The notes under the pieces: generated by a model
Seen by the model: only the letters and a program-made list of their open reading frames with translations
Told to the model about the DNA's origin: nothing
Database searches by the model: none
Source: a virus
Taxonomy: Duplodnaviria > Caudoviricetes
IMG/VR virus record: IMGVR_UViG_3300026085_000098
Coordinates: 1 to 64,000 of that record
Length of the DNA: 64,000 nucleotides
Reading direction: 5' to 3' (one strand)
Shown here: in pieces, positions 4,779 through 41,274 of the stretch
Layout of the letters: each line of letters begins with the position of its first letter
Numbering within the stretch: the stretch's first letter is position 1
Made by a program: the position numbers and the translations under genes

Positions 4779-5096
4779 TTATGAATCTATTTCTTCTACT
4801 CTAACTCTTAAAGGAAATCCATTTTCTCTAGAAACACCTGTTGCTTCTAATGCTTTTTGTTCAGCAATCTCAAAACTATAAATTCCTACAATGCCTGAAC
4901 CTTCTTCGTGTATTTGCATTGTAATATTGTGTGCTTGATCTTCTGAGTGTTTAAAAACTTCAACAAGCAAACTTACAACAAAGTCCATAGGAGTCTGTTC
5001 ATCATTTAGAAATACAACTTTGTATTGACCAGGTTCTTTATATTCGATTGTTATTTTTTCATCAATTTTAATATCTTCTAAAATATTAGTCATCAT
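4779..5096 (-). CDS. clpS: ClpS N-degron adaptor
   Basis: YKVVFLNDEQTPMDFVVSLL, IHEEGSG and FPLRVRVE motifs; start set at ATG 5096 after AGGAG. Confidence 0.9.
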   Translation of the reverse strand: MMTNILEDIKIDEKITIEYKEPGQYKVVFLNDEQTPMDFVVSLLVEVFKHSEDQAHNITMQIHEEGSGIVGIYSFEIAEQKALEATGVSRENGFPLRVRVEEIDS

Positions 5097-5107
5097 ATCT
5101 CCTAAAT

Positions 5108-5127
5108 GGGGGGATGTCACTCCCCCC
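5108..5127 (-). terminator. GC-rich stem-loop between hsp20 and clpS (weak terminator or mRNA stabiliser)
   Basis: GGGGGGA-TGTCAC-TCCCCCC inverted repeat; no strong U-tract. Confidence 0.45.
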
Positions 5128-5134
5128 TAGACTT

Positions 5135-5596
5135 TTAGCCTTCGATTGTTTCGTGTACAGCACCATTGTAGTCTGTAATTTTAATTTTCTTTGGTTTTTG
5201 TGCTTCTGGTACTTCACGTACTAGATGAATATTTAACATTCCTAGTTCTAGAGTAGCATTAGCAACTTCTACATGCTCTGCAAGTGTAAACTGTCTGCGG
5301 AAGTTACGTCCGCCGATTCCTTTATGAAGATAGTTTACTTCTTCATCACCTTTTGGAGCAGTACCTTCTACAGTCATTACATTCTTTTCTACTGTAATAT
5401 CTAGGTTGTCCATACCAAATCCTGCGACTGCAATACTAATCATATATTCGTCTTCGTTGATTTGTGCAATGTTGTAAGGTGGATACCCGTTTGATTTGCT
5501 GTTTGCAAAATCTCGTGTCATTTCATTAAAGATTCTATCAAATCCAATAGTTGCACGATGTAGATGGGGTAAGTCTAGTGTTGTTAATCTTGTCAT
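5135..5596 (-). CDS. ibpA: Small heat shock protein (Hsp20/IbpA family)
   Basis: GYPPYNI, IAVAGF, YLHKGIGGRNFRRQFTLAEHVEV and GMLNIHL motifs. Confidence 0.95.
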   Translation of the reverse strand: MTRLTTLDLPHLHRATIGFDRIFNEMTRDFANSKSNGYPPYNIAQINEDEYMISIAVAGFGMDNLDITVEKNVMTVEGTAPKGDEEVNYLHKGIGGRNFRRQFTLAEHVEVANATLELGMLNIHLVREVPEAQKPKKIKITDYNGAVHETIEG

Positions 5597-5602
5597 TTCA
5601 TT

Positions 5603-5646
5603 TCTCCTTATTAAGCAAGATATGTGATGTGCCCTTTTCGGCGCAC
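5603..5646 (-). promoter_or_regulatory. ROSE-like RNA thermometer in the hsp20 5'UTR
   Basis: UCUUGCU-UAAUA-AGGAGA pairs over the Shine-Dalgarno with a bulged G; preceded by a GUGCGCC-GAAA-AGGGCAC hairpin. Confidence 0.55.
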
Positions 5647-5650
5647 AACT

Positions 5651-14819: not shown

Positions 14820-15164
14820 TTATTCAATATTACGAACTTGCCTTCCGCTATGACACATTTTTATACATAGCGGAGGAGGATTATCACTATTCCATGCTTT
14901 TTCACAACAATGATTTTGATAGTAATCATGATTTACTATATCATATAAATCATAGTAATTTAAATTATTCCAATTAGGATCTTGCTCGAAAGCCTTGGTC
15001 AGTGCTTTATCAGACATTAAAGTGTTATCTGTAGGATGTGCATAACTTTCTACTAGGTAATGACAACAAGGCCATACTTTCCCATCAATGTTAATTTCCC
15101 AATCCCGTTCTATTGCATCATCAAATTCGTTATAACTCATACAATCTATATTATACATAGCCAT
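14820..15164 (-). CDS. Stand-alone SPASM/twitch-like Fe-S domain protein
   Basis: INIDGKVWPCC...PPLCIKMC; GAGGA RBS overlaps the radical SAM stop. Confidence 0.6.
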   Translation of the reverse strand: MAMYNIDCMSYNEFDDAIERDWEINIDGKVWPCCHYLVESYAHPTDNTLMSDKALTKAFEQDPNWNNLNYYDLYDIVNHDYYQNHCCEKAWNSDNPPPLCIKMCHSGRQVRNIE

Positions 15165-15828
15165 ATTCCTCTAATAATGATGTTGCTTCGTCTATAATTA
15201 ATTTATCACACAAACCTTCGGCAGGATTATCTGTCCTGGTAATTTTAAATACTAGTTGCCTTTTTTCAAGCTTTAGTCCTTTAGCAATGCTGACTACTTC
15301 TGGTATTGTTTTGTAGTTCCAATTAAAAAGAATATAATGCCATTCTATTCTGCCGCCGTTTTCATGAAATGCAATCATGTTATCCCATGCTTGTTGGAAC
15401 TTTACACCTTTTCTGTATTTCCAATTCATTTCATGATCTATTCCATCAATGCCAAATGCAATGGTTAGTTTTCTATTCTTTTTTGCCTGCGCTGCATACC
15501 AGTTCGGTCGACGTATCCCCCCGTTTGTATTAATTAGAACACCATTTACTATATTATAGTCAAAAGCAATATCCAAAATTTCGTCTATACAAGGATGCAT
15601 CATAGGATCACCTAACTCTCCGCATAGTTGTAATTGGCCAAACTTTTGCCATTTAGTGTAGCCACTATCTAAAAATTTTTTAAAGTTAGATGGGTCCATG
15701 TGAAATTGATTTTTTTTAATCCAATTAGAAGGAGTACCGTCTTCGTTATTTCTTTGACACCCTGCACAGAAGGCTTGACAATAACTTGAAATAGTTATAT
15801 CAAAAGAGTTAATTTGTTTTTTTACCAT
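15151..15828 (-). CDS. Radical SAM protein
   Basis: CQAFCAGC (CxxxCxxC), GELGDP, INTNGG and FGIDG motifs. Confidence 0.85.
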   Translation of the reverse strand: MVKKQINSFDITISSYCQAFCAGCQRNNEDGTPSNWIKKNQFHMDPSNFKKFLDSGYTKWQKFGQLQLCGELGDPMMHPCIDEILDIAFDYNIVNGVLINTNGGIRRPNWYAAQAKKNRKLTIAFGIDGIDHEMNWKYRKGVKFQQAWDNMIAFHENGGRIEWHYILFNWNYKTIPEVVSIAKGLKLEKRQLVFKITRTDNPAEGLCDKLIIDEATSLLEEYGYV

Positions 15829-15844
15829 TAAGCCTACTATATGT

Positions 15845-16152
15845 TATGCCACTTTCTGTTGCTAGGCTGTGGCCGCCCCCTTAATTATGCTGCTAGAGCG
15901 TAACCAGAAGGTGCAAAGTTTGAATTTGCATCTAGTTTTTTTGACCAATAACGCAGTCATCCGGTTAACTCCACTTCACTTTCACACCTGTCGATCCCAT
16001 GTCAGGCCCATCATAAACGCACTTTCTTGGCTCGGTCAGGAGTTGTGTGCTGCACCACACCTATTATGCAGATAGGCGAAATGCGTTTATGGTGGACCTG
16101 CCCGGAATTGAACCGGGGTCCAGTATGTGTCCACGTTGCTTCAACGCTAACA
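15845..16152 (-). ncRNA. ssrA: Circularly permuted (two-piece) tmRNA
   Basis: T-arm CCCGG-TTCAATT-CCGGG, then CAGGTCC-A-CCA (16100-16090), precedes the 5' acceptor strand GGGCCTG (16009-16003), giving a G3-U70 Ala identity pair. Tag frame 15929-15885 encodes ANSNFAPSGYALAA-stop. TATAAATA at 16163-16156. Outer ends are approximate. Confidence 0.93.
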
Positions 16153-16154
16153 GT

Positions 16155-16724
16155 TTATTTATAAAGTCTATATTTTATAGTGTCAACCACTCTTTTACTT
16201 AAAACAATTTCGTAATGGTTTCTATCAATTGTTGTGTATTCTACATCGCCTCTGCAAGTCATTGAATGTCGTGTAACAATACCATCATTCTTTCCTGATA
16301 ACCAAGGAACATCACCTGTTGTAGTAACAATTTGTAACCAAGGAACTTTTATTGAAAGTTTTCTACTGCCTTTTATAAACGCACTATGTGGCGTAATGTC
16401 TCTAAATAATTGGTATCCTGGATTAAGTAAACCTCCCCAAGTTGCTATCTCGCTACCATTAAACGGTGTAGCAAGGCTAACTACACCTTTGATGTCAAAT
16501 AAATTTTGTAAGTACGTTGCATATACTCCGCCTAAACTATGTGCAATGATACTAAAAGGCCCCTTGTTTTCCTTTAGGATTTCTTTCATTTCATCTAGAT
16601 TTTCTTCAGCAGTTGTTTCTTTATCATAATTCAGAAAAATAGGATCTTTTGCTTTTATTTCTTTTTGAATATAAGCAAAACTTCTTTCGCTTGCTGTAGC
16701 GCCATGTATGAAAATTGTTTTCAT
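16155..16724 (-). CDS. Alpha/beta hydrolase
   Basis: FIHG, AHSLGG nucleophile elbow, LATPFNGS, DGIV and catalytic His (RNHY). Confidence 0.85.
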   Translation of the reverse strand: MKTIFIHGATASERSFAYIQKEIKAKDPIFLNYDKETTAEENLDEMKEILKENKGPFSIIAHSLGGVYATYLQNLFDIKGVVSLATPFNGSEIATWGGLLNPGYQLFRDITPHSAFIKGSRKLSIKVPWLQIVTTTGDVPWLSGKNDGIVTRHSMTCRGDVEYTTIDRNHYEIVLSKRVVDTIKYRLYK

Positions 16725-40869: not shown

Positions 40870-41048
40870 TGGCTGAAGCAATTATGAAATACACATTCGC
40901 ACCACTCCAAGGATTTTGGGCAGGGTTTTATAACTTCTGTGAAATCGCAGGTTATGCAAGAGCAGCATCAGAACTAGCACGCCATGGCTACTATGAAGAA
41001 GCAAAGAACTGTATGATGCAAGTTTCGAGACTACGCAATGACAGGTGA
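40869..41048 (+). CDS. Small hypothetical protein
   Basis: [19 protein letters not shown]; TAATG overlap with the DUF1127 gene. Confidence 0.6.
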
Positions 41049-41274
41049 TATTGTAACTATGGGCGCCTACATTGGCGCAGGATTTGCTTGTTTGGGCATG
41101 GGCCTTGCAGCAATAGGTGTAGGACAAATTGTAGGTCAGTTTTTGAACGCCGCAATGGCTATGCCGCATCGTAGCACAGAACAAAACGCAAACCTATTTG
41201 TAGGTATTGCTTTTGCCGAAGCACTTGGAATCTTTTCATTCTTAGTAGCATTGTTGTTGATGTTTGCAAGTTGA
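41038..41274 (+). CDS. atpE: F0 ATP synthase subunit c homolog with divergent polar loop
   Basis: Two TM helices, GAG.AC.GMG..A.GVG, and [22 protein letters not shown] (proton-carrying Glu kept); the loop reads AMAMP rather than ALRNP. Confidence 0.9.

Follow-up and report, generated by a model that had tools for sequence, protein, structure and literature searches.

A circularly permuted, probably functional tmRNA gene on the genome fragment of a probable roseobacter phage

A circularly permuted tmRNA gene was found on the minus strand, at 16151-15845, of the phage DNA analysed here (hereafter the window, a stretch of 64,000 nt comprising bases 1-64000 of a 73,706-bp IMG/VR record, 35% complete according to CheckV). 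ARAGORN and two Rfam models agree on this gene. Judged by its sequence, it is very likely complete and accessory to the phage, and it is probably functional. It is a new example of a published class, the phage two-piece tmRNA (PMC9004378). What is new in the sources searched are modest additions to that class, namely a putative hybrid promoter, a mosaic of modules with a non-alpha tRNA-like domain, and a possible link to hsp20-clpS.

Detection and structure of the tmRNA gene

ARAGORN reported a permuted tmRNA at 15794-16183 with the tag ANSNFAPSGYALAA. The full Rfam model RF04321 (tmRNA_permuted, positions 1-213) was matched at 16151-15885 with 107.3 bits (E 6e-20), against a curated threshold of 47 bits. 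RF01849 (alpha_tmRNA) was matched at full length at 16190-15845 with 76.6 bits (E 5e-19, threshold 50 bits) and was retained as the best member of the tmRNA clan for this gene. The signal is far above chance expectation. The initial annotation had proposed a phage-encoded permuted two-piece tmRNA with an ALAA tag of the ClpXP type, and had named ARAGORN and a covariance model as checks. Both hit the gene, the assignment of the tag was judged correct, and all of the elements that had been listed were found on the minus strand by reading the sequence. The acceptor piece, with its CCA end, precedes the spacer, which is followed by the coding piece with its GGG start (Table 1).

Table 1. Positions of the features at the tmRNA and hsp20-clpS loci of the window.
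Feature	Position	Strand	Remarks
Alpha/beta-hydrolase-like gene (UPF0227), upstream neighbour	16155..16724	minus	Marks the locus in 39 related contigs
-35 hexamer TTGACA	16181..16186	minus	Inside the 3′ end of the upstream hydrolase gene
TATAAATA box	16156..16163	minus	8/8 T4-type late consensus; doubles as sigma-70 -10 (TATAAA)
Acceptor piece, ~62 nt	16090..16151	minus	From Rfam alignment and module table; 5′ end predicted
P2 5′ strands	16151-16121	minus	Within acceptor piece
T-arm CCCGG/TTCAATT/CCGGG	16117-16101	minus	Read from sequence
Acceptor 3′ strand CAGGTCC + ACCA	16100-16090	minus	Read from sequence
Intervening segment (spacer), exactly 80 nt	16010..16089	minus	Predicted to be excised; closed by 9-10 bp helix
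Coding piece, ~165 nt	15845..16009	minus	Starts GGGCCTGAC at 16009; 3′ end predicted
Acceptor 5′ strand GGGCCUG	16009-16003	minus	Coding piece
D-loop	16002-15990	minus	Coding piece
P2 3′ strands	15990-15964	minus	Coding piece
PK1 region	15963-15935	minus	Coding piece
Tag reading frame	15885..15929	minus	GCA resume codon; tag ANSNFAPSGYALAA at 15929-15888, stop TAA at 15887-15885; ARAGORN and sequence reading
3′ pseudoknot	15848..15878	minus	Shared with related phages and Rhodobacterales
Radical SAM gene, downstream	15151-15828	minus	ATG at 15828
SPASM gene, downstream	14820-15164	minus	After radical SAM gene
Second hybrid promoter TTGACA-N17-TATAAATA	5681-5651	minus	Drives hsp20-clpS
hsp20	5135-5596	minus	PF00011, 2e-16
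clpS	4779-5120	minus	PF02617, 5e-29

The acceptor stem has 7 bp (GGGCCUG paired with CAGGUCC), the ACCA end is encoded, and G3 (16007) is paired with U70 (16096). The helix that closes the spacer is formed by ATAAACGCA (16090-16082) and TGCGTTTAT (16021-16013), with a duplex energy of -12.0 kcal/mol, and no ORF of 25 codons or more lies inside the 80-nt spacer. Folded together, the tRNA-like domain and spacer reach -51.4 kcal/mol (z = -4.0), and none of 200 shuffles was as good. These helices vary among the phage relatives with their pairing intact. Seven variants of the acceptor stem occur in the phage family, every one exactly complementary, and the T-stem varies in the same complementary manner. 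The spacer-closing helix exists in eight versions, paired in all of them, and the length of the spacer itself ranges from 12 to 214 nt.

The P2 helix (CAGGTGTG/CACATACTG) comprises 8 bp with one bulged A, the pairings being CACAU-A-CUG with CAGGUGUG and GUUAG with UUAAC. Its duplex-energy z-scores are about 0 and uninformative, and support for P2 therefore comes from the covariance model and from covariation of the pairs adjoining the tRNA-like domain (CUG/CAG, CAG/CUG and UCG/CGA). PK1 is the weak point of the structural model. Rfam flagged non-canonical pairs here, alignment by eye supports a single helix of 5 bp (UGACU/GGUCA; the relative L022 differs by one G-to-A change), and the region is wholly missing from the closest relatives, L004-L008. 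The 3′ pseudoknot is H-type and common to seven related phage copies and all five Rhodobacterales tmRNAs compared. Its first stem pairs GGGC (15878-15875) with GCCU (15867-15864) and its second GCCAC (15873-15869) with GUGGC (15852-15848). Both stems covary, the first as GGGC/GCCU or GGGU/ACCU and the second in seven complementary versions, around a loop (AGCAACAGAAA / GCAACAGAA) that is invariant across the compared copies. A different 3′ pseudoknot, in which AGCCUA would pair with a downstream UAGGCU, was dropped, as it is GGGC/GCCU that covaries.

The tag contains an Ala resume codon (GCA), a C-terminal ALAA and a TAA stop. Tags of phage relatives include ANDNFAPSGYALAA, ANDNFAPSGFALAA, ANDNRAPEMALAA (L022), ANDNYAPEMALAA, ANANRAPAMAIAA, ANENFASEDLRLAA and AKANYSLAA, and the C-terminal (L/M/I)AA is kept in all relatives. 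In five Rhodobacterales genomes the tags are ANDNRAPMALAA, ANDNRAPAMALAA, ANDNRAPVAMAA, ANDNRAPVALAA and ANDNHAPVAVAA; the phage tags resemble such tags, for example ANDNRAPVALAA. From this comparison the phage tags therefore look to be derived from Rhodobacterales, with the C-terminal degron kept. The L022 tag, ANDNRAPEMALAA, is nearly identical to host tags. The tag of the window keeps both ends, but its middle is unlike that of the host tags (ANSNFAPSGY... versus ANDNRAPV...).

Source phage, related loci and mosaic sequence

The source is probably a marine, T4-related phage. The fragment has a G+C content of about 37%, and its genes, tightly packed on the minus strand, include those for ribonucleotide reductase, tail-fibre-like and virion proteins, and pstS. 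The best isolate matches of a virion structural protein are from Synechococcus phages S-T4, S-B43 and S-B05 (42-44% identity), of which S-T4 belongs to the Kyanoviridae and has its homologue of this protein between the terminase subunits. The best 80 bacterial matches of an atpE-like gene (41038-41274) all come from Rhodobacterales, at 60-72% identity. A roseobacter-type (Rhodobacterales) host is favoured from these sequences with moderate confidence, which is held at that level because the G+C gap to roseobacter hosts is large.

Using the hydrolase gene as a marker, the locus was collected from 39 IMG/VR contigs (49-99% identity), 16-17 of which contain a tmRNA above the Rfam threshold. The tmRNA lies immediately downstream of the hydrolase gene in L004-L008, L013/L014, L016, L017 and L019-L024, and about 0.8 kb farther downstream in L018 and L038. 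No such tmRNA is present at the locus in L009-L012, L015, L028-L037 and L039-L041. A similar tmRNA is carried by L048, which is part of G206, a 201-kb genome that is complete and has terminal repeats. ARAGORN gave false negatives for seven copies that Rfam detects (L004-L008, L017 and L018), the closest relatives among them, and standard finders thus overlook some phage two-piece tmRNA genes.

Several of these loci depart from the arrangement seen in the window. L004 (4535-4853), L005 (4535-4791) and L006-L008 have, at the same locus, a stripped-down tmRNA without PK1 or the outer P2; these copies score 82-93 bits with Rfam and are undetected by ARAGORN, and the spacer of the L005 copy is 29 nt. 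The copy in L017 (4529-4842, same locus) is barely at the Rfam threshold, and then as a beta-type tmRNA. In L018 (5315-5809) a 214-nt spacer holds a 60-codon basic ORF (MRYSNPWSGN...). An array of tRNAs (Pro, Cys, Met, Ile and others) takes the place of the tmRNA in L026 (3160-3760) and L027 (4582-5181), and stands behind TTGACC-N17-TATATT. The phage tmRNAs of L002 (380-761) and L003 (4724-5062) are of the beta type and have exactly the T-arm and acceptor stem of the window.

Segment-by-segment comparison of the tmRNA with these relatives revealed a mosaic. Agreement with L004/L005 extends over the promoter, tag, 3′ pseudoknot and the genes on either side (34/35, 42/47, 52/59 and 73/79). In the 5′ leader, which includes P2 strands, and in the P2/PK1 region, the window instead agrees with L022/L019/L048 (31/31 and 46/53) and shows no relationship to L004/L005 (10/31 and 17/53). 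Over the 3′ half of its tRNA-like domain it is identical (31/31) to L002/L003, which share nothing else with the window. Moreover, an exact 25-mer from the T-arm/acceptor core was found, among viral contigs, only in L002 and L003, and in none of 185,579 bacterial species genomes. The T-loop TTCAATT and the D-loop ACATGGGATCGAC of the window are the same as in L048. An alpha-type T-loop (GGCGGTA) with an ...AGG... D-loop is present in all five Rhodobacterales and in 8 of the 11 copies of the phage family, the window being counted among the 11 but lacking this combination. The domains of L016 and L018 equal that of Roseovarius except for one D-loop base.

The simplest reading of these sequences is that recombination between phage tmRNAs would explain the body and tag blocks, and convergence is possible for the short G+C-rich stems. 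If the domain was swapped in this way, the swap might be an adaptation, for example to the SmpB of a new host or to escape a factor recognising the alpha-type domain. None of 50,697 isolate phage genomes matched the locus in blastn. The tmRNA likewise had no blastn match in 201 Rhodobacterales genomes, so that no donor can be named.

The hybrid promoter and the hsp20-clpS genes

Upstream of the gene, the TATAAATA box overlaps the stop codon TAA (16157-16155) of the hydrolase gene. Read as a sigma-70 promoter, the site has a -35 match of 6/6, a spacer of 17 nt and a -10 match of 5/6 (TATAAA, without the last-position T); as our consensus promoter scanner requires that T, the site was scored by script instead. 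The motif NATAAATA is genuine and strongly intergenic in this phage. The 8-mer TATAAATA is not over-represented in the whole window (9 found, 7.3 expected), and its minus-strand copies are all intergenic (6/6). Minus-strand copies of ATAAATA are intergenic in 16 of 18 cases, though intergenic sequence makes up 7.4% of the total, and these intergenic sites lie 4-78 nt upstream of gene starts, structural genes among them. This concentration in intergenic sequence argues that the T4-type late motif is really in use. The minus-strand ATAAATA sites also provide a usable map of late promoters for this phage.

At 16 of the 18 ATAAATA sites the -35 match is only 1-4 of 6, which is the background level. 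At the other two, a perfect TTGACA is spaced at exactly 17 nt, for which the background frequency is 0.002: the site at the tmRNA (16186-16156) and the one at 5681-5651. TTGACA was found at all 11 related phage tmRNA loci, at a spacing of 17 nt in ten and of 16 nt in L018. Nine copies have TATAAATA as their -10, L048 has TATATATA and L018 has TATACT; in L018 the sigma-70 element and a stand-alone TATAAATA are separate and the latter is at its usual distance from the tmRNA. TTGACA occupies three different reading frames of the hydrolase gene among the relatives, and at tmRNA-less loci the -35 is kept with a -10 of TATAAT (L009 group) or TATATT (L026 group). Since its conservation does not depend on reading frame or context, TTGACA is an element at the DNA level and not a by-product of coding.

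From these sequences, the tmRNA promoter looks like a sigma-70 early promoter fused to a late box, from which the gene would be expressed throughout infection. The initial annotation had placed the gene under a late promoter, which would mean that the phage late polymerase alone reads TATAAATA and that TTGACA is irrelevant. The late box itself stood up to analysis, since it matches the T4 late consensus in full, its motif is clearly used in this phage, and 9 of the 11 related copies keep it, as does L018 in the form of a separate box. Late-only expression seems rather unlikely, however, for this box is combined with a full -35 (6/6) at exactly 17 nt, whereas 16 late-type boxes have -35 scores at background level, and the -35 is conserved even where the -10 is TATAAT or TATATT. 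Likewise, the ssrA gene of phage Melnitz has been assigned to an early promoter (PMC9004378). Expression both early and late is thus the more likely, because the -35 is conserved and the other late boxes are without it. Of the late machinery, gp55, gp45 and gp23 were found in G206, a complete, more distant, tmRNA-bearing relative, but neither on the 73.7-kb fragment nor on the fragment of a closer relative (G205), so that the machinery is inferred from the motif and from G206 only.

The ssrA genes of Rhodobacterales hosts have a weaker promoter (TTGCAA-N17-TATATT), no late box and an extra 5′ hairpin; theirs is also an upstream sigma-70 promoter, but at a different distance. Since this TTGACA-N17 promoter is also retained at phage loci lacking a tmRNA, it may be resident in the phage and not inherited with a bacterial ssrA. 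On the downstream side, the radical SAM ATG (15828) is ~20 nt past the last helix of the tmRNA. No terminator was found between the tmRNA and the radical SAM/SPASM genes, the first terminator-like site being at 14793-14770, and these genes are therefore probably co-transcribed with the tmRNA.

The only other hybrid promoter in the window is that of hsp20-clpS. A hybrid promoter is not general for hsp20, as most of 80 related loci have a late-type box only, and the shared promoter type is therefore a feature of this lineage only. ClpS is present in two tmRNA-bearing relatives (G205 and G209); G206 has a tmRNA but no ClpS, and G207 and G208 have neither. In E. coli, ClpS diverts ClpAP from SsrA-tagged substrates, and a functional link between tmRNA and ClpS is therefore conceivable. 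Taken together, we tentatively propose that in this phage group the tmRNA behaves as a cassette whose modules recombine, the copy of the window having a non-alpha tRNA-like domain, and that tmRNA, Hsp20 and ClpS form a proteostasis set of this lineage on a shared hybrid promoter, although we rate this joint reading as less probable than its opposite.

The hsp20 5′ UTR (5597-5650) contains a conserved hairpin, CGCC-GAAA-GGG, at 5646-5629, followed by AUCUUGCUU and AAGGAG. Related phages retain the hairpin in 50 distinct upstream regions (in L136-L215, before position 1501), and it has no match in Rfam; it may be an RNA thermometer or an anti-Shine-Dalgarno element.

Proposed role and comparison with known systems

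In the mechanism that we propose, transcription would start near 16151 from the TTGACA-N17-TATAAATA promoter, read early by host sigma-70 RNA polymerase and late by a gp55-type late polymerase, and the precursor may extend into the radical SAM/SPASM genes. Host RNase P would cleave 5′ of G16009 and 3′ processing would end at A16090, with removal of the 80-nt spacer. The predicted products are an acceptor RNA of ~62 nt and a coding RNA of ~165 nt, joined by the acceptor stem and P2. Once charged by host AlaRS, the phage tmRNA would be brought by host SmpB and EF-Tu to ribosomes stalled on broken mRNAs, translation would resume at GCA 15929 and append ANSNFAPSGYALAA, and the product would pass to host ClpXP. 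The benefit to the phage would be that ribosomes are kept free during degradation of host and phage mRNA.

A search of the rest of the genome for smpB had been suggested by the initial annotation. No match was found in the 73.7-kb record or in five large relatives, including the complete 201-kb G206, and the phage tmRNA must therefore use the SmpB of its host. We assume that the two are compatible, with a T-loop unlike the alpha type of the putative hosts. The initial annotation had also suggested that the phage tmRNA replaces a host tmRNA cut by defences. This found no support. In T4-infected E. coli, four host transcripts are stable, SsrA among them (PMC9697503), which speaks against phages generally having to make good the loss of host tmRNA. 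According to work cited in the same paper, the tmRNA of Caulobacter is cell-cycle regulated by degradation (PMC9697503), and phages of alphaproteobacteria would thus have reason to bring their own.

Alternatively, the phage tmRNA might compete with that of the host, so that a tag chosen by the phage is added to rescued proteins and alters adaptor recognition or the choice of protease, perhaps jointly with phage ClpS. Such reprogramming would account for a tag that differs from host tags in its middle and not at its ends, and would fit the phage ClpS and Hsp20 behind the same promoter type and the co-occurrence of ClpS with tmRNA in G205 and G209. We nevertheless hold it to be improbable, given that the tags of some relatives are almost host-identical (ANDNRAPEMALAA in L022) and that G206 has a tmRNA without ClpS. 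Far less probable still is a decoy, an RNA sequestering SmpB or ribosomes and so blocking trans-translation in the host, for which a precedent exists in the CDS-less tmRNA-like RNA of mycobacteriophage DS6A (as cited in PMC11915505). Competition for host SmpB would follow from the lack of a phage smpB, and the tRNA-like domain is atypical for the host; against this, the tag ORF is intact in its resume codon, stop and degron and is conserved in all relatives, and covariation keeps every structural module. A host ssrA captured by chance, or left as the remnant of an integration site and without a role in infection, is equally hard to sustain: ssrA is a common integration site and the gene is missing from over half of the related loci, but it is complete, strongly diverged from every host copy and kept intact through compensatory changes, has neither a blastn match in the Rhodobacterales genomes nor its 25-mer in any bacterial species genome searched, and stays at one locus in relatives with 54-99% protein identity in the neighbouring gene.

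Ribosome rescue through host SmpB, the reading that we prefer, places the gene beside several known systems. For the OM43 phage Melnitz, Buchholz et al. 2022 (PMC9004378) described an ssrA that is complete, two-piece and of the alpha type. That study counted 53 two-piece tmRNAs in isolate phages, of which 50 were marine or aquatic, and of 47 related contigs 17 had permuted tmRNAs. It also reports the permuted form from a betaproteobacterial lineage, cyanobacteria and marine phages (PMC9004378). The statement of the initial annotation that the form is characteristic of alphaproteobacteria is thus incomplete. Like Melnitz, pelagimyophages such as Mosig and related virome contigs, the window has a complete permuted alpha-type tmRNA in what is probably a lytic marine myophage. 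As in the Melnitz group, the gene is accessory ("common but not defining"), with a sigma-70-type promoter and other genes directly after it (PMC9004378). Unlike that group, the window has no glutamine riboswitch at the Rfam gathering level, represents a different phage clade with a different probable host (Rhodobacterales), and has a promoter that is also a full late-type box and a T-loop that is canonical, not alpha-type.

The two-piece tmRNA of Alphaproteobacteria works in Caulobacter (Keiler, Shapiro & Williams 2000, as cited in PMC9004378). The window shares with the alphaproteobacterial form (RF01849) its gene order, P2 pairing, a tag of the form ANxN...ALAA, a short stem-closed spacer and a 3′ pseudoknot with a GCAACAGAA loop. 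It differs from Rhodobacterales tmRNAs in its RF01849 score (77 bits versus 282-306 in hosts), in its T-loop and D-loop (TTCAATT and ...TGGG... versus GGCGGTA and ...CAGG...), and in a spacer of 80 nt versus 20-24 nt, and it is AT-rich. Huge phages carry tmRNA and SmpB (Al-Shayeb et al. 2020, PMC7162821). The window resembles them in that a ribosome-rescue RNA is borne by a phage, but whereas their sets can include SmpB, there is no smpB on the fragment or in the complete 201-kb relative.

These findings leave the accepted picture of phage tmRNAs unchanged, and with them a probable roseobacter-phage lineage joins the marine phages known to carry a ribosome-rescue RNA. They also offer testable leads, namely a promoter made for early as well as late firing, the exchange of tmRNA modules between related phages, and a possible link between tmRNA, ClpS and Hsp20 through which protein quality control in the infected host would be controlled.
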